Below, in pieces: positions 2,588-14,149 of a DNA stretch of 64,000 nucleotides (positions are counted from its first letter, which is position 1; each line of letters starts with the position of its first letter). Source of the DNA: Candidatus Levyibacteriota bacterium (lineage in GTDB: Bacteria; Patescibacteriota; Microgenomatia; Levybacterales; UBA12049); contig PLZJ01000003.1 of NCBI GenBank assembly GCA_003152105.1, positions 6,899-70,898 of the forward strand, in the 5' to 3' direction. Below the pieces are notes generated by a model. That model did no database searches. It saw nothing but the letters and a program-made list of their open reading frames with translations, and was not told where the DNA came from. The position numbers were made by a program, and so were the translations under genes.

Positions 2588-2662
2588 TTACTACAAAAGG
2601 TGCATATCAAACTAATATAATGTATGAAAAGAAAGTATCTACTCGATTAATATTTATGATAC

Positions 2663-5600
2663 TTATTTTATTAAGATGTGAATTTTTACAATATTTATTG
2701 TCATTGCATTATCATTTGATCTACTCATTTGATACTTTCCAGATTTATCCGTATATGTAGCCCATATTGTCTCGGTTCCAAGTTGTGATGGGTTTGTGCT
2801 TGTGCTATCAATTGCAACAAAAGTACACAATATTGATGATCCATTTTTGCTATAGTAGTCATAAAATTCTCCTGTTAACTTACCTTTCTTGTTATAAAAA
2901 GCAATATTTCCTTTTTTTGGAAATGTGCCATCTATAAGCGTAGTGATAGATTTAAAGCAAATACCACTTTTTAAATTTGCAGATGTTGGTGGAACTGCAG
3001 GTATAGTTGTAGTAATTTGAGTACTTGTAAAAATCTTATGAACCGGTGGAGAAATGTGCCAATTTCTATCACACGTTGCTATCCCTCGATTAAATCCATT
3101 CTCAAAAGTTAATGAATTACCAAGTTCAGCTTTTAAAGGATCTGATGACGTGTCATTCCACGCATAGGCAAGAAGTGATACTGCTCCATTAGTACAAAAA
3201 CTTTGAGATTGCGTTGCAATATCTTGTGCACGTGGGTTAATATAATTTTGAGTTGGAATATAAAATGTTTGTGGTGTACCGATGATTGGTTGCATTTTTG
3301 CATCCCACCCGTTCCACTGTAACTCAGATAGTAAATATGACAGCAACGTACTCATTGACCAATCTATACGTGTTGCGTCACCGTTTATATTTCTATAGTT
3401 ACCAGCGTAAATATATAATGAAATATAATTACATGCGTCGGGAGAATAATTTACGATTGCTCTATCAAATTGGCCTCTAGATACCTGCGTTAATGTGGAA
3501 CCAGTATAATAGTCTAAGCTTGCACCATATGCACAAACGGTAGGTAGAAATTTTTGTGTGTGAGCATTATTTTGATCAACTAGATTCTGTACAAGTTCTA
3601 AAGCATCCTTAACATTTCCAACATAATCATCTTGAAGATAATACCCTGCAATTAAAGGATCATTATTTGTTTTATGCAAATAGCTAGTTGTATCGTGAGA
3701 AAGTAGTTGTAGGTCTGAGTTAGAAATCGAACAGTTTTGATCTCGAGTATGAAGCGCAGGTACGAGTGGACAGGATTTATTTAAATATTTGTTAATTAAT
3801 ATAAGTAACGAATTATCCAAATAGGTAATGTGATTTGCTTTATATAATGCATACAACGGAGAATTTTTCGCAATATGTGAACTAACCGTATAAGTTATAC
3901 CAAGCGATGAAGCTTCCTCTAAAGCAGCTTCATTTGAGGCAATTGCATTTTTATTTACATTTGTAATATCATATGCGCCAAACTTATTTTGTAACGACAA
4001 AGATGAGCGATCTGTTGAAGGTAAAGATTTAATAATTACCGCAAAATAATCAACTGGTAAAGTAAGGTTTATTGAACCACTTCCTATTTGTGAAGAAACA
4101 TATGCGCCAAAAGTATTATAAATATATGCCGTAAGCGTGGAGTTATCATTATATGTATAAATGCCTGATTTTTGGGTTAATATCTTATCAGTTCCGATTA
4201 TATAATCTTGATGCAACTCAAGTGGAGTAATTGGATATATTTTGGTAAGAATATTGTTAGTTGTGGAAAATGGAACTGCCGAAGCATAATACAATACACC
4301 GTAATGAAGATAATTTCGAAGTATTTGCGCATGTGTTTGATCTGCATCTTTTGCATTATCAATATACGGTTTTGAGAATCCATTTACCGAATAGCTATCA
4401 ATTTTTTCGTAAGCAATTGGCGAAAACAATTGCGCTTGCGGGGCAACTTTTCCTTGTAAATCATAATTTAAATCTTCGGCGAATCTAGGAATATGCATAT
4501 CTGGCAAATACTCTTCGTTTAATTCCGGTACGTAATTGGCAATAGCTGACTTACTACTTTGCTGGGTAACAAAATCAACTAAATCTTTTTGTGCTAAAGG
4601 ATAATGAAGTGATAAATCTTCTTTTTCGTTTACAATTTGAAATGTTACTGGATTAATGTCAGCAGTATTTAAATCTTGATTTGTGGATTTCGAAGTACTA
4701 CTACCATAATTATATGCTTTAACATACCATGGATGAGGAAAACTTGGATCATTAGTTGGATCAATACCACTGACTAGATTATTACCGAGGGTATTCGCAT
4801 AGCCTTCAAAATCATCAAAGTATATACCATCAATTCCATAATTTTGTAACATGGTTGTTAATACCTGCTTAAGATGTGACGTATAAGATAAATTCGGATC
4901 ATTTAAAAATAAATTAAATGCAAATGGTTTATAAAATTGATATGAAGTACAGTTTGGATAATTAGTATCTATAGATTTAGAAACACGTTGACACACTAAA
5001 TTATCCGTTGAAGGAGATTGTGGTTGGCTTAAGGGATAGGCATAATTTGCCGAACACATGTTGCTATTTTTTAAGGCCGATATTTCACTATTTGCTTGTG
5101 ATATCGAAACCCTTGTATCTGCCAATCCACAACTATAGGTATATGATTTACTCGTCGTAGAAGCACCTAATACAGAACTGTCAGGAAGAGTAGTAGTTTG
5201 ATCATATACCGGAGTAGGAATAGTATGAGGCGGCAAAAATACCTTATTATTAATTACAACTGTTGGAGTAGGCAAAGCAGAGGGCGTTGGCGAAACTGTT
5301 GCAAGAGGTGAAGATAGGCTTGGTGTAGTATTTATTAATGCATCACTGTATGTATTTCCATATGATCCGTCTGGATTATCATCAGAACCAACATTATGTT
5401 CAAAGTAAACGAGCACTTTTACTTTTTTCTTTGTCAGTACCGAAGCACGTTTTATTTGTTTAATAACAGGAATTAATACGTTGTTAATTTGAGAAGTATT
5501 GATAGTAGCTGAGTTTCCAAACGTATACTTTAGATACGTAAGTCCTGGAATTGGATTATCATTTAAATCATATGCTTGCTGAGTAGATGATAAAGACTGA

Positions 5601-6919: not shown

Positions 6920-6948
6920 TTGACTTGTCAGTACATTATCAGTACAAT
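6920..6948 (+). promoter_or_regulatory. Sigma70-like promoter (TTGACT-17-TACAAT) with two CAGTACA direct repeats 11 bp apart; candidate autoregulatory operator of the TA module
   Basis: Read directly upstream of ATG 6955. The -10 box is only 6 nt from the start codon. Confidence 0.45.
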
Positions 6949-6954
6949 ATTACT

Positions 6955-7197
6955 ATGTTAATTCAAAAGATATACAGAAACGGCAATTCTCTCGCAGTTA
7001 CAATTCCTAAACAATACTTGGAAGATCTCTCCTTAATAGAGGGTTCACAAGTTGTCGTTGAAAAGAAAGGTAATGGCATTCTTCTCACAACTAAAAAACA
7101 AACATTAGCACCTGATGTTGATGGTAAGTTCATGAAAATGGTTGATAGCTTCATCGATAAACATGAGGATGTACTTCAAAAACTCGCAAATAAGTGA
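6955..7197 (+). CDS. AbrB/MazE (SpoVT-AbrB fold) family antitoxin
   Basis: MLIQKIYRNGNSLAVTIPKQYLEDL matches the swapped-hairpin N-terminus of AbrB/MazE antitoxins. The ORF-track TTG start at 6925 was replaced by ATG 6955. Confidence 0.7.
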   Translation: MLIQKIYRNGNSLAVTIPKQYLEDLSLIEGSQVVVEKKGNGILLTTKKQTLAPDVDGKFMKMVDSFIDKHEDVLQKLANK

Positions 7198-7592
7198 ATA
7201 AAAAACACCATTATATAACCCCCAGTCAAGTGCTTGCAATTCATGATCAAGTGATAGAAAGATTTGGAGGATCAACAGGTCTTCGAGATTTAAGCCTACT
7301 TATATCTTCTGTACTTAGACCTCAAGCTAGTTTCGACGGTAATGATTTATATCCAACTCTATTTGAAAAAGCCGCGGCGTTGCTTCAATCACTTCTTAAA
7401 AATCACCCGTTTGTTGATGGAAATAAAAGAACATCGTTAACTTCGACTGGTATTTTTCTACAACTTAATGGATGGGAAATTGAAAATAGTCATGGTGAGG
7501 AAGTAGATTTTGCTATTAGAGTAGATAATGAGAACTTAACTTTGGAGCAAATTTGTTTGTGGTTAAAACAGCATTCTAAAGAACAAAATTAA
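7194..7592 (+). CDS. doc: Doc (death-on-curing) Fic-family toxin
   Basis: Fic/Doc motif HPFVDGNKRTS. The GTG start overlaps the antitoxin stop (GTGA), indicating translational coupling. Confidence 0.8.
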   Translation: MNKKHHYITPSQVLAIHDQVIERFGGSTGLRDLSLLISSVLRPQASFDGNDLYPTLFEKAAALLQSLLKNHPFVDGNKRTSLTSTGIFLQLNGWEIENSHGEEVDFAIRVDNENLTLEQICLWLKQHSKEQN

Positions 7593-7616
7593 TTTATCCT
7601 TAAGCATAGGACTTTG

Positions 7617-7690
7617 TGGACGATTAGGGATTCGGACCCCAGACCTCTTCAGTGTAAATGAAGCGCTCTAACCAGCTGAGCTAATCGTCC
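7617..7690 (-). tRNA. tRNA-Val (anticodon TAC)
   Basis: Reverse complement folds as a cloverleaf: GGACGAT acceptor, GCTCAGCTGGTTAGAGC D-arm, anticodon loop TTTACAC, T-loop GGTCCGAATCC. Confidence 0.85.
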
Positions 7691-8289: not shown

Positions 8290-8317
8290 TTGACATACCC
8301 TCTTTTTCTGTTATAAT
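8290..8317 (+). promoter_or_regulatory. Near-consensus sigma70 promoter (TTGACA-16-TATAAT) ahead of the GC-rich cassette; ~190-nt leader follows
   Basis: Read directly. Confidence 0.5.
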
Positions 8318-8543
8318 TTCACCTAACGAATGTGTTAAAGCTAAACATTTGCTGTTTAACGTAAGATACGTTCGAAAAAGCACTTTTACAAGAAAGGAAA
8401 TAACCAACAATCCTTCTAGCGAATAGTTTTTTAGCCTTGGCGAAAGCGTAAAGCGTCTCAGAATTGTGAAATTTAAATGACAATATCACGTCCTGGAGCA
8501 TTTTGCGCTTTTGTTAAAGCACCTATTCTACTATGGAGGCAGT

Positions 8544-8984
8544 ATGACCCCTTTTCGAGTCGTTCGTTCGTCGTATAGAATGACCGTTTCGTACGAAGAT
8601 GGCCCCGGTTCACTTACAAATCCTGAGCAAGTACTCAGCGCAAAACACGTCGTTTTGACTGGTCAATGCAAAGATCCGAGTCTTTTGACGGCTGAAGCAC
8701 TTAGCTTCCATATCAGTCGTTTTCCTACATGTGATTACGAAGATTTTGGACCGGCAGTTGGAGATCATGATTATTCATACGAACTCCAAAAGAAAGAGGG
8801 AGACAAGTGGGTGTATGTCACTTTTTTGAATCCTTATGGTCGTAAGATCACATGTGAACATCAGAGTGAATACGATGAAGACCCAGAACTGTGGCCAGAG
8901 GAAGAAGACGAAGACGAAGAACCAAGGCTACCTCCCGCAACTGTTTTTAAACGATTTTCGACACACTTCAATCAAAGGAGATAA
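8544..8984 (+). CDS. Hypothetical protein with acidic C-terminus, in the GC-rich cassette
   Basis: ORF with strong RBS (GGAGG-4nt-ATG at 8544; the ORF-track start is 8511). GC is markedly higher than surrounding DNA. No recognisable motif. Confidence 0.45.
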   Translation: MTPFRVVRSSYRMTVSYEDGPGSLTNPEQVLSAKHVVLTGQCKDPSLLTAEALSFHISRFPTCDYEDFGPAVGDHDYSYELQKKEGDKWVYVTFLNPYGRKITCEHQSEYDEDPELWPEEEDEDEEPRLPPATVFKRFSTHFNQRR

Positions 8985-8986
8985 CA

Positions 8987-9421
8987 ATGATTGATACTAA
9001 AAATCCGTTCACCAATCTTGACGAAGTCAGAACCGCACGTGAGTACTGTATCACAATCAGAGATCACGCCGACGCGTTCATCGCTCACAGGCACTTTGAT
9101 CGGTACAGAAACGGGACAATTCCGAGCATTTCAACTCGTCAGTTCAAACTCGTTGAATCGACGTGCATCGAAGCAGAAGATATTCCAGCTCACCCAACAC
9201 TTCCTTACGAGGACGTGCCGGAACTATTCCTTCAACCTACATTTATGTGTGTTGTTTACAGCTCACATAAAGTCGCACACTTTCCGGACAAAGACGTGCA
9301 TCTGAGGATGATTCACCTTTGTGCAGAATGGGAGCAAGAGTATCACCTCTATATCGTCGACGATCAGGTCGTTATGACGCTTTTGAGTCGCAATCAAGGA
9401 CGGTTAAATCCCATTAGCTAG
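8987..9421 (+). CDS. Hypothetical protein, in the GC-rich cassette
   Basis: AGGAG RBS 8 nt upstream. Starts 3 nt after the previous stop. GC-rich. No recognisable motif. Confidence 0.45.
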   Translation: MIDTKNPFTNLDEVRTAREYCITIRDHADAFIAHRHFDRYRNGTIPSISTRQFKLVESTCIEAEDIPAHPTLPYEDVPELFLQPTFMCVVYSSHKVAHFPDKDVHLRMIHLCAEWEQEYHLYIVDDQVVMTLLSRNQGRLNPIS

Positions 9422-9513
9422 AGTCGGAATCGACGCGTTGGTTTAGGGTAATAAGCAGAAGGAAATTCATGTAGCTACTTTGTTACATACAACCCCTTCT
9501 CACCCTTCCTTTC

Positions 9514-9567
9514 TTTCCGTCTACTGCTATAAGCAGTACTGATGAGTCCTTTTAGGACGAAACGAGA
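9514..9567 (+). ncRNA. Type III hammerhead self-cleaving ribozyme
   Basis: Read directly: stem III 5' strand ..ccGUC, with cleavage expected after C9521; stem I hairpin UACUGC-UAUAA-GCAGUA; core CUGAUGA; stem II GUCC-UUUUA-GGAC; GAAAC with A15.1 pairing to U16.1. All invariant core nucleotides are present in canonical order. Confidence 0.7.
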
Positions 9568-9852
9568 TACTTCGATTATATATAGTGCCCCATATGGGAC
9601 GATGTTCGAACCTATTTGTGCCTAAACATCGATCAGGGTGAAAAGACAAGCTTGCTTTCTGCAATTAATCACTTCAAAAAGAAGGAAATTGAATGAAAAT
9701 TTATTTTCTTCCTTCCAATAATGAGGTTGGAACAATTTCTTCGACCATTCTCCAAACCAGATCTTTAGGAAACTCACTGTATCATATGTGACAAAAGCTT
9801 CTCCTTACAAACGGTTGAATTAAGAGCATCTAAGAATAACTAAGAATAATTA

Positions 9853-9881
9853 TTGACAAACTTATATTTGAGCACTATAAT
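9853..9881 (+). promoter_or_regulatory. Perfect consensus sigma70 promoter (TTGACA-17-TATAAT), 8 nt upstream of ATG 9889
   Basis: Read directly. Preceded by the direct repeat CTAAGAATAA x2 at 9829-9848. Confidence 0.6.
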
Positions 9882-9888
9882 AAATAAA

Positions 9889-10260
9889 ATGACTAAAGAA
9901 AGTATAGATCCAAACAAAGTTTACACCACTCAAGAAGCAGCAGATGTCCTTGGTGTTTCTGAACAAATACTAGTTATGCAATTAAGGAATGGTAAAATTA
10001 CTGGACAATATATTGGAAAAGGGTGGAAAATATTGGGTCAGAACATCATTGACTTTCTAAAAAAACCTCAAGGATTAATTGAGCGGTTAGCTGAAACTAT
10101 GCTGGAAGAAGAAAGTAAGTCAGACTCGTCAAATAAACAAAGCCCTGTAGAAAATGCTGTTCAAAGATTACTCAATGGTAGCTCAACATCTCCAAGATAT
10201 ACTCCTGAACAAATTGATTTAGCACTAAAACAATACAAAGAAAAGAAAGGAATTACCTAA
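9889..10260 (+). CDS. Helix-turn-helix DNA-binding protein (excisionase/MerR-like HTH) with a low-complexity C-terminus
   Basis: YTTQEAADVLGVSEQILVMQLRNGKI is a typical excisionase-family HTH. The ORF-track TTG start at 9853 lies inside the promoter and was replaced by ATG 9889. Confidence 0.55.
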   Translation: MTKESIDPNKVYTTQEAADVLGVSEQILVMQLRNGKITGQYIGKGWKILGQNIIDFLKKPQGLIERLAETMLEEESKSDSSNKQSPVENAVQRLLNGSSTSPRYTPEQIDLALKQYKEKKGIT

Positions 10261-10262
10261 TT

Positions 10263-10694
10263 ATGCCAAGTCTTAAAATGGTCAAGCACCAGGCATGGGC
10301 TTTTTATAGTAAATGGAAAAAACAAAAAACTTTCTCTCCAGCTTTCAACTCTGATGTTAGAGTATCACTTAAAGGTTGGTACCACATAACTGGAGCAAGA
10401 GGATTCAAACAGAGAAGTGCAGGCGATGTATATCGAAGACTTATGATTTTACATCATGCAAAAACTATAATTGAAACAGCAACCACGATTCAAAACGTTC
10501 AAGTCAAAGGGAAAATCACTTATTATGCCTTAGACTCTGTTACGCAAGTTTCAGAAAATGACAAAACTGAGTGGAGAAAATTAAGAGTAATTATTATTGA
10601 CGATATTAAAGGAAACAAAGTTTTTTATTCAGTTATGGATAAAAAACCAAGTATAAGACCTAAAATACAAAAAAAGAGGATGCCTCACCCTTAG
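10263..10694 (+). CDS. Hypothetical basic protein, coupled to the HTH gene
   Basis: Starts 3 nt after the HTH gene's stop. No recognisable motif. Confidence 0.4.
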   Translation: MPSLKMVKHQAWAFYSKWKKQKTFSPAFNSDVRVSLKGWYHITGARGFKQRSAGDVYRRLMILHHAKTIIETATTIQNVQVKGKITYYALDSVTQVSENDKTEWRKLRVIIIDDIKGNKVFYSVMDKKPSIRPKIQKKRMPHP

Positions 10695-11015: not shown

Positions 11016-11111
11016 TTATGTAAAATGGTGCTATGTATTATAACGTAGCTTCGATTGTAACAAAGTCATATTGTATTGACAAGGAACCTTAAATATGTAA
11101 ATATTATATGA

Positions 11112-11712: not shown

Positions 11713-11741
11713 TTGACAAACCTATAGCTTTCTGCTATACT
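11713..11741 (+). promoter_or_regulatory. Sigma70-like promoter TTGACA-17-TATACT
   Basis: Read directly. Confidence 0.4.
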
Positions 11742-12476: not shown

Positions 12477-12560
12477 GCCGGGATGGCGAAATGGTAGACG
12501 CGCATGGTTTAGGACCATGTGCCCTTAAAAGGCATGGAGGTTCGAGCCCTCTTCCCGGCA
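12477..12560 (+). tRNA. tRNA-Leu (anticodon TAG), type II
   Basis: GCCGGGA acceptor, GCG-AAATGGTAGA-CGC D-arm, anticodon loop TTTAGGA, long variable arm, GGTTCGAGCCC T-arm. Confidence 0.85.
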
Positions 12561-12595
12561 CATCTTGTGATATAATAGGCATCCAAACAAGCACT

Positions 12596-13423
12596 ATGGC
12601 AACAACATTACAAAAAGCAATAGACGGAACAATTACCTTAACAATCGCAATTCCTGCTGCAGATATTGAAAAGGCAAAAAAAGAAGTACTTGAATCATTT
12701 TCTAAAGAAGCGCAAGTAGCTGGATTTCGAAAAGGAAAAGCTCCTAAAAAACTAGTTGAAGATAAGGTGAATGAAGATAAGCTACGTGAAGAAATTCTTC
12801 GAACTACACTTCCCAAAGCATATGTTGCTGCGGTTACAGAACAAAAGTTGCAACCAGTTCTTAATCCAAAAATTCATATTAATAAAATAGAGGAGGGGAA
12901 AGACTGGACTTTTACTGCAGTTACTTGTGAAGCGCCAAAACTTAATCTTGGAGATTATAAAAAAAGAGTACAAGATGTAACGGCAAAAAGCAAAATTATT
13001 GTCCCTGGAAAAGAGCAAACTTCACCAAGTCTTGATGATATTGTTTCAGCACTTTTGTCAGGAATTGATGGCGCAATTCCTTCGGTTATTTTAGATCAAG
13101 AAGTTGATAGACTGCTCGCACAAACCCTTGATGAAATTAAAACGCTTGGTATATCGCTTGAGCAATATCTTTCTTCAACAAACAGAACAGTTGAGGGAAT
13201 TAGGCAAGAGTATAAAAAAAGAGCTGAAAATGATGTCAAATTAGAATTTGCGCTTCAACAAATAGCTGAAGATGCAAAAATTGTTATTGAAGAAAAAGAA
13301 ATAGATGAGGCAATACAAAAAGCCAAAGACAAGAAAGAACAAGAACAAATGCAGGCCAATCGCTATTTATTAACGAGTATTTTACGACAACAAAAAACCT
13401 TTGATTATTTAAAAAACCTATAG
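12596..13423 (+). CDS. tig: Trigger-factor-like protein (short, ~276 aa; N-terminal ribosome-binding domain signature)
   Basis: GFRKGKAPKKLV matches the trigger factor GFRxGxxP ribosome-docking signature. The start was moved to ATG 12596 to clear tRNA-Leu. Confidence 0.5.
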   Translation: MATTLQKAIDGTITLTIAIPAADIEKAKKEVLESFSKEAQVAGFRKGKAPKKLVEDKVNEDKLREEILRTTLPKAYVAAVTEQKLQPVLNPKIHINKIEEGKDWTFTAVTCEAPKLNLGDYKKRVQDVTAKSKIIVPGKEQTSPSLDDIVSALLSGIDGAIPSVILDQEVDRLLAQTLDEIKTLGISLEQYLSSTNRTVEGIRQEYKKRAENDVKLEFALQQIAEDAKIVIEEKEIDEAIQKAKDKKEQEQMQANRYLLTSILRQQKTFDYLKNL

Positions 13424-13456: not shown

Positions 13457-14149
13457 GTGGTACGCTGCCCACAGAATATGGCTATAACATCTAAATTAAC
13501 AAAGCGAAATTTCTCTCTCCCAGACCCATTTGAATCTTTTGAAACACTAAGAGAAAGTACAACAGGTGCTGCAAAAGGCACTGCTTCAGTCATAAAACAA
13601 ACAAGCATAGAGGTTGTTCAAGAAGCAACAACCCAAGCAAGCGGTGTATTTGGAGAAGCGCTGGGACAATTATTTGGTGATTTAGCACCAAATGAAGAAT
13701 TTAGTTTACCTTCAGCTCGAAAAGCACAAAGTGAAAAACAAGAATCAGCTTCAAAACCTAGAAAAGAAGCAGGAATTGACTATTTTTCTGAAATTATTCA
13801 TGGTGAAACAAGAATTCATAGAACACAGTCCCAAGAATTACAAACAAAAATTTCTGAAATTATGAAGGAAGTAACCTTACTTATGAAAGCATCAAGCGAA
13901 CTTCAGATGCAGTTTAAAGAGGTTTCAGTTGAAAAAGTTACCAAATCACCAGGTAAATATCATGAATCTTTCTTTGAATGGCTTCTTATTACCGTACGAA
14001 CCATTCGAATACGAGTAGATGATAGTGCAAATTGGTTAGCAGTGATGGGGAACAAAAAGGAGAAAAAATCTTACTGGAATATGTTTAAAAAACATGGCAC
14101 TACTTTTGGAATGTCAGGCGAACGATCTGTTTCAAATCAGGTTGCATAA
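13457..14149 (+). CDS. Hypothetical protein
   Basis: ORF only. The start may be the internal Met at 13478. Confidence 0.35.
   Translation: MVRCPQNMAITSKLTKRNFSLPDPFESFETLRESTTGAAKGTASVIKQTSIEVVQEATTQASGVFGEALGQLFGDLAPNEEFSLPSARKAQSEKQESASKPRKEAGIDYFSEIIHGETRIHRTQSQELQTKISEIMKEVTLLMKASSELQMQFKEVSVEKVTKSPGKYHESFFEWLLITVRTIRIRVDDSANWLAVMGNKKEKKSYWNMFKKHGTTFGMSGERSVSNQVA

Follow-up and report, generated by a model that had tools for sequence, protein, structure and literature searches.

The window, as the whole 64-kb stretch of DNA analysed here is called, carries a type III hammerhead ribozyme on the + strand at 9514-9568. The element is intergenic, lies on the coding strand and stands behind a compositionally foreign operon of two orphan genes; a first-pass annotation of this DNA had described the hammerhead and the GC-rich two-gene operon before it. 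The features of the locus are listed below; both promoters are matches to the consensus only.

8290-8317, +: consensus promoter TTGACA-16-TATAAT with TG (extended -10), 12/12 positions; predicted driver of the operon and ribozyme transcript
8544-8984, +: orphan ORF A, 146 aa, 44.0% GC; gene call in contig L001
8987-9421, +: orphan ORF B, 144 aa, 46.0% GC; gene call in contig L001
9440-9509, +: stable imperfect stem-loop directly 5' of the ribozyme; minimum free energy (MFE) -20.4 kcal/mol, z = -3.1
9514-9568, +: type III hammerhead ribozyme, whole element; from its sequence, a full-length match to Rfam RF00008, our own covariance model and a descriptor simulation
9514-9520, +: stem III 5' strand (16.7-16.1); 9518-9520 and 9515-9516 paired, C9517 mismatched
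9519-9521, +: cleavage triplet GUC, from the sequence
C9521/U9522, +: predicted cleavage site, from its position in the hammerhead core
9522-9538, +: stem I hairpin UACUGCU/AUA/AGCAGUA; 7 bp (9522-9528/9532-9538) with a triloop
9539-9545, +: catalytic core strand C3-A9, CUGAUGA; invariant in both alignments, though fixed by the search pattern
9546-9558, +: stem II hairpin GUCCU/UUU/AGGAC; 5 bp, the same in L191 and L245
9559-9568, +: core G12 A13 A14, then stem III 3' strand ACGAGAU (15.1-15.7), from the sequence
9853-9881, +: consensus promoter TTGACA-17-TATAAT, 12/12 positions; ends 7 nt before ATG 9889
9889-10260, +: excisionase-like HTH gene, from the gene call

Genes and signals around the ribozyme

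ORFs A and B were called as overlapping-frame genes upstream of the ribozyme. Their GC content compares with 35.4% for the window and falls in the top 0.5% of equal-sized windows, which agrees with the earlier description of a GC-rich two-gene operon. The GC-rich block extends from about 8450 to about 9650 (41-49% GC) and takes in the ribozyme. A word-indexed search of 5.8 billion proteins returned only the sequences themselves for both ORFs, and an exhaustive HMMER search of 1.8 billion representatives with the upstream ORFs added only a repetitive, probably spurious protein of 692 aa. AlphaFold2 single-sequence models of the two products are poor (pLDDT 36 and 52). Its high GC content in a 35% GC genome and its orphan ORFs make the block at 8450-9650 a probable recent arrival from a foreign source.

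Weaker hints of such an origin are the GC-rich orphan ORFs, the excisionase-like HTH gene, a 143-aa ORF behind it and a MazE/Doc pair. The latter, a MazE-like antitoxin with a Doc (Fic family) toxin at 6925-7592, is located directly upstream of a tRNA-Val gene (7616-7690, - strand), and two tRNA-Leu genes lie further downstream of the ribozyme. No convincing att-like repeats or tRNA fragments were found to bound the island, and no integrase or phage structural gene was found near the ribozyme. Comparison of the neighbouring genes with phage and defence libraries gave nothing meaningful. Elsewhere in the window, a trigger factor of 310 aa (12491-13423) matches the N- and C-terminal domains only, with no match to the central domain, and is followed by a DUF5660 protein at 13457-14149. 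These two proteins, the 35% GC and the 1.14-Mb metagenome scaffold that carries the window point indirectly to a Patescibacteria/CPR genome.

The stop codon of ORF B ends at 9421, 92 nt before the ribozyme and 100 nt before the predicted cut, so the figure of about 95 nt given earlier was fair. No intrinsic terminator was detected on either strand between 8300 and 10400. The HTH gene shows no evident Shine-Dalgarno sequence, and because its own promoter ends 7 nt before the start codon, its transcript from that promoter is probably leaderless. Regions similar to the -35 elements of the two perfect sigma-70 promoters recur at 11064-11081 and 11713-11726.

Sequence, fold and statistical support

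The element at 9514-9568 (+) reads UUUCCGUC up to the predicted cut site and continues with UACUGCU-AUA-AGCAGUA, CUGAUGA, GUCCU-UUU-AGGAC, GAA and ACGAGAU. It contains the full hammerhead core, C3 U4 G5 A6 N7 G8 A9 with G12 A13 A14, as CUGAUGA at 9539-9545 and GAA at 9559-9561. The cleavage triplet follows the NUH rule (G9519 U9520 C9521, with H17 not G), and the A15.1-U16.1 pair is formed by A9562 and U9520. The topology is that of type III, with stem III open and stems I and II closed by loops. Every element that the first-pass annotation had listed on the + strand was thus found in its place. Stem I, listed there as 6 bp (9522-9527/9533-9538), can be extended to 7 bp with the loop AUA, and stem II, listed as the 4 bp GUCC/GGAC (9546-9549/9555-9558), can be extended to 5 bp with the loop UUU. 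The catalytic guanines are G5 at 9541, G8 at 9544 and G12 at 9559; position 9543, proposed as a G for a control mutant, is in fact U7, the least conserved position of the core.

Stem III is the weak part of the structure. Three contiguous Watson-Crick pairs (A9562-U9520, C9563-G9519 and G9564-C9518) are followed by an A9565.C9517 mismatch and then by two further pairs, G9566-U9516 and A9567-U9515; relatives usually have a stem III of at least 4 bp. When folded in isolation, the 55-mer keeps stems I and II (z = -3.0), and its MFE fold pairs CGUC with GAUG of the core instead of forming stem III, a common inactive alternative. The loops AUA and UUU (or UAUAA and UUUUA, with the shorter stems) are not conserved within the triloop subclass. 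They differ from the dominant GUGU/AAAA pair, so that a tertiary contact for fast cleavage is only putative here. The weakness of stem III and the atypical loops raise real concern about the predicted catalysis, because fast cleavage at low or physiological Mg2+ needs a tertiary contact between loops I and II (PMC6155905). The word 'canonical', as applied to this element in the first-pass annotation, was therefore too strong: its stem III is among the weakest of 149 type III elements, its loops are unlike those of the dominant class and its Rfam score is below gathering.

In the covariance-model check that had been proposed, the Rfam model Hammerhead_3 (RF00008) aligns to the element end to end (model positions 1-54) with 36.1 bits, corresponding to E = 3.4e-6 in a 501-nt search and E = 4.3e-4 over 64 kb, both strands and all 4227 Rfam families, while lying under the RF00008 gathering score of 48.5. 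Fourteen clearly related elements score between 35.4 and 49.6 bits, and 13 of them (35.4-47.2 bits) are also below gathering. At 36.1 bits the element falls inside this range and is no exception in its group, so that the low value is not evidence against it. For this hammerhead subgroup, the Rfam gathering threshold is conservative, and routine Rfam annotation would therefore leave most such elements unannotated. The 13 of 14 elements missed at the gathering score were seen across L010, L045, L078, L139, L163, L191 and L245.

Two further analyses address how readily such a match could arise. A strict descriptor combined CUGAUGA and GAAA with minimum lengths of 4 bp for stem II, 5 bp for a directly adjacent stem I hairpin and 3 bp for stem III, with U16.1 and with any base but G at H17. 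It finds one match in the window and none in 400 first-order Markov simulations of a 64-kb window. Under our own covariance model (R1), built from 149 type III sequences, the element scores 54.1 bits and the runner-up within the window 11.7 bits. The hammerhead is thus single-copy in 64 kb by the R1 search. Searching the 64 kb with all Rfam families returned nothing besides the hammerhead and five tRNAs; neither Rfam nor our own model found a second ribozyme or another RNA family in the intergenic region.

Relatives, covariation and comparison with known hammerheads

Relatives were searched for with the pattern CTGATGAGTCC-N3-8-GGACGAAAC in species-representative genomes and viral contigs. At least 119 stretches in species-representative genomes and at least 120 in viral contigs match, and a narrower pattern with a 5-bp stem II and a triloop gives at least 120 matches in metagenomes. 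These counts are samples restricted to a GUCC/GGAC stem II and are not a measure of abundance. Of the 131 genome matches listed, 108 have the type III layout, 14 are of type I or II and nine fit neither; the metagenome and viral matches listed are mostly type I or II, with 28 and 35 of type III, respectively. The exact geometry of the window's element is common to 12 elements among the matches listed. L191 and L245 have a stem II and loop identical to those of the window and a stem I of UAUCGAU/AUCGAUA, compared with UACUGCU/AGCAGUA in the window.

The predicted helices are supported by covariation. In the 13 sequences of the same geometry, 89.5% of the cells at paired positions are paired, as compared to 29-49% when the partners are slid out of register; for the 149 type III elements, the values are 90.5% and 32-44%. 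The relatives had been pre-filtered for minimum lengths of stem I (4 bp) and stem III (3 bp), come from non-orthologous loci and have a core and stem II fixed by the pattern; the paired fractions are therefore inflated and stem II is uninformative. Double (compensatory) changes occur across the relatives at all seven stem I pairs and at five of the seven stem III pairs. With the window, L191 and L245 alone as input, RNAalifold recovers all three helices unguided and finds compensatory changes at three stem I pairs and one stem III pair. Position 15.4/16.4 is paired in 143 of the 149 relatives; the window, with A.C, is among the six that are unpaired there, which places its stem III in the weakest 4%. 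Its core, its topology and the covariation together place the element among the type III hammerheads.

The relatives of the triloop subclass sit at the 3' ends of genes or between co-directional genes. Those in L139, L163 and L253 stand directly before an intrinsic terminator, and those in L191 and L245 lie between co-directional genes and end 18 nt before the next start codon. The L139 element (738-792) lies about 1.9 kb from a 16S rRNA gene (2645-4315); weak matches to group I introns occur within this gene and close to it, as is typical for CPR.

Conservation was also examined at loci that share genes with the window. Four contigs with the same orphan ORF (L001-L004) are 100% identical to the window and hence uninformative. 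Because the ORFs at 8544 and 8987 lack homologs, conservation of the motif at orthologous positions behind them, for which a search had been suggested, could not be shown. The 143-aa ORF (10263-10694), which follows the HTH gene, has eight homologs with 45-80% identity; its family looks like a small one carried by mobile elements. Members of this family (L125-L134) adjoin integrases, IS21 transposase/IstB, T4SS pilins, TraG-like ATPases or AbiEii. The pair of HTH gene and 143-aa ORF is kept only in L124 among the ten loci fetched, and none of the ten, L124 included, has a hammerhead at E <= 1. The absence of a hammerhead from these loci, together with the orphan status of the upstream ORFs, indicates that the ribozyme is not tied to either flanking gene set, so that the link to a particular kind of cassette raised in the first-pass annotation falls away.

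Many of the relatives come from Patescibacteria. About 82 of the 119 genome stretches listed carry Patescibacteria names (Saccharibacteria, Paceibacterota, Parcubacteria), and model R1 gives 140 matches in the 685 kb of L005-L123, loci chosen for carrying the pattern, with up to seven per 8 kb. Dense examples are L010:3338-6412, L045:2060-7186, L078:2599-6336, L013 and L049. The statement that hammerheads are rare in bacterial chromosomes thus fails for this lineage. The high frequency of type III elements with this GUCC/GGAC stem II among Patescibacteria MAGs is a lead rather than a measured enrichment. Full-text searches found no literature linking hammerheads with CPR, Patescibacteria or Saccharibacteria, subscription literature being outside their reach.

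The dominant form in these genomes is cUGUC / 6-7 bp stem I / (A)UGUGU(A) / GUCC-AAAA-GGAC / GAAACAG, and nearly all of its flanking ORFs are small and without Pfam domains. The class also tends, to a significant degree, to have a hairpin immediately before stem III: the 45 nt upstream of 115 elements fold with a mean of -12.3 kcal/mol, as compared to -6.4 for shuffled sequences and -8.5 at 200 nt away. A 3' GUUCUUU motif (AAaAaUGUUCUUU.AAA) stands 0-8 nt after stem III and is found within 30 nt downstream in 46 of 132 elements versus 2 of 130 upstream. Pairing of this motif with upstream sequence so as to extend stem III was considered and rejected, with 6.02 of 7 pairs against 5.98 in shuffles. 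Like the dominant class, the window's element is of type III, has the same first four stem II pairs and a short stem III, follows a hairpin, lies between or after small orphan ORFs and scores below the Rfam threshold. It differs in having triloops in place of GUGU/AAAA, in lacking the GUUCUUU motif, in its longer hairpin, which is not directly fused to stem III, and in being single in 64 kb rather than one of several per 8 kb.

Compared with the type III members of RF00008 (sTRSV, PLMVd, bacterial and phage), the window has the same core (C3-A9 and G12-A14, A15.1-U16.1 and C17) and the same topology, whereas its score of 36.1 bits is below the gathering value and its stem III is very short and interrupted. 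Viroid and satellite ribozymes have longer interacting loops where the window has the triloops AUA and UUU, and they belong to rolling-circle replicons, whereas the window's element is single-copy in a DNA genome. The first four pairs of stem II, GUCC/GGAC, are those of the sTRSV-derived ribozyme, the sequence of which appears in L032. That contig (RAYF01000220.1, 'Bacterium D16-36') starts, at L032:1-56, with TTCCGGTCTGATGAGTCCGTGAGGACGAAACAGCCTCTACAAATAATTTTGTTTAA, the 3' part of the synthetic RiboJ insulator; because of this match, the contig is probably contaminated by an engineered construct. RiboJ, a synthetic insulator derived from sTRSV, resembles the window's element in being of type III, in lying between transcription units and in its core and GUCC/GGAC stem II. 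It differs in being engineered and placed in 5' UTRs, with a 3' hairpin that exposes the RBS, whereas the window's element is natural and located in a 3' UTR or read-through region.

Hammerheads of types I and III in bacterial intergenic regions, with hundreds of bacterial examples, were published in 2011, as were their clustering around small ORFs without known function and the idea of polycistronic processing (PMC3088659, PMC6155905). Cutting of polycistronic RNA by clustered bacterial hammerheads was shown both in vitro and inside E. coli (PMC3088659). Jimenez et al. 2011, as cited in PMC6155905, also reported intergenic hammerheads in bacteria and prophages. The window's element is one more example of these bacterial intergenic hammerheads, known since that year. 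The elements of Perreault et al. 2011 (PMC3088659) likewise occupy intergenic regions on the coding strand, beside small ORFs that vary from case to case and have no known function. Those elements are typically clustered and near integrase or prophage genes, whereas the one in the window is single and has no integrase nearby; its probable host group, the Patescibacteria, was not sampled in 2011.

Predicted self-cleavage and its possible role

We consider it probable that the element is a genuine type III hammerhead acquired with the orphan operon as its 3' terminal module, and that by cutting itself it sets the 3' end of the operon mRNA and uncouples the read-through RNA. Transcription would start at the 8290-8317 promoter and proceed through ORFs 8544-8984 and 8987-9421. 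Meeting no intrinsic terminator, the polymerase would pass the stem-loop at 9440-9509 and then the hammerhead. Stems I and II and the short stem III would fold, and the RNA would cut itself between C9521 and U9522. The upstream mRNA would then end in a 2',3'-cyclic phosphate about 12 nt after the hairpin, which would be protective, and the downstream read-through RNA would begin with a 5'-OH. Because stem III is short, the products would be expected to separate rather than religate. The net effect would be a terminator-independent 3' end and an operon mRNA uncoupled from the HTH gene, which has its own promoter.

This 3'-end model is supported by the promoter at 8290-8317, the lack of a terminator, the separate promoter of the HTH gene, the hairpin (z = -3.1), the extent of the GC-rich block, which takes in the ribozyme, the placement of the subclass relatives and the published cutting of polycistronic RNA by clustered hammerheads. 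Against it stand the sub-gathering score, the weak stem III, the divergent loops, the inactive MFE fold, the fact that no homologous locus conserves the element and the nature of the promoters, which are consensus matches only. The first-pass annotation had proposed that self-cleavage would define the 3' end of this mRNA. That proposal fits the lack of a terminator and the separate promoter of the next gene; the analysis shows the sequence, its fold, covariation in the relatives and the missing terminator signals, whereas transcription through the site, the cleavage itself and a physiological role are what we infer.

The weak stem III could also mean that the element is a true hammerhead by descent that arrived with the cassette but retains little or no activity and does nothing for the host. 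Three viral (IMG/VR) type III hammerheads, L278, L347 and L374, have the same stem III 5' strand, UUUCCGUC, with a fully complementary 3' strand, ACGGAAA or ACGGAAU, and this comparison suggests that ACGAGAU of the window may be a degraded version of that strand. The place of the element among the six of 149 that are unpaired at 15.4/16.4, its single copy in 64 kb and its absence from L124 point the same way. Neutral decay, however, would be expected to strike the core and stems I and II as often as stem III, and here all 11 invariant core positions, A15.1-U16.1, C17 and perfect stems I and II of 7 and 5 bp are intact. Stem III could, moreover, still form five of its seven pairs. We regard a relic as unlikely. 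Somewhat less probable still is a role on the downstream side, in which cleavage would give the 5'-OH end of a non-coding RNA or leader at 9522-9852 or would insulate the HTH gene in the manner of the synthetic RiboJ. The ribozyme is followed by 285 nt without an ORF, its closest relatives among the matches listed, L191 and L245, end just upstream of a start codon, and in a quarter of the class the next ORF on the same strand is no more than about 52 nt away, all of which would suit such a role. However, a 12/12 promoter of its own stands 7 nt ahead of the ATG of the HTH gene, which shows no evident Shine-Dalgarno sequence, and a processed read-through leader is therefore not needed for it. 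In addition, region 9569-9852 has no RNA family match and is unique, being common to none of the loci fetched, and the fold of the whole intergenic region is unremarkable (z = -1.9).

A fortuitous match to the hammerhead consensus, unrelated by descent to ribozymes, appears very improbable. The score under gathering, the look-elsewhere effect of scanning for striking motifs and the lack of an orthologous copy would all be expected of such a match, but E = 4.3e-4 for the window and 0 of 400 simulated windows with the descriptor would not, nor would a stem II and loop identical to those of L191 and L245, which also have the same stem I geometry, or the abundance of such elements in the lineage. 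Hammerheads also bound mobile or circular RNA elements in eukaryotes and subviral RNAs. The least probable reading by our estimate is that the one in the window is part of such a retrozyme- or viroid-like element, for the 64 kb hold one hammerhead only and no member of another ribozyme family, flanking repeats are lacking, and no reverse transcriptase was found near the ribozyme.

The preferred reading, a hammerhead that forms the 3' end of the operon mRNA, concerns an arrangement that is clean: a consensus promoter, two orphan genes, a hairpin, a ribozyme, no terminator and a separately promoted gene. The locus is thus a convenient test case for the role of chromosomal bacterial hammerheads, a question that the field has called open (PMC6155905). 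A wider proposal is that CPR bacteria, and probably their phages too, use type III hammerheads with a short stem III across the lineage for terminator-free mRNA 3' ends and operon processing, and that these elements are largely missed by the Rfam threshold and absent from the searchable literature, with the window's element as a divergent triloop member. We put this forward tentatively, as a possibility to which we give somewhat less than even weight. This wider point may matter more than the single locus, as small-genome CPR bacteria appear rich in hammerheads that fall below the Rfam threshold. If it is true, it would point to RNA processing by ribozymes as a routine part of gene expression in a large bacterial lineage that is still poorly understood.
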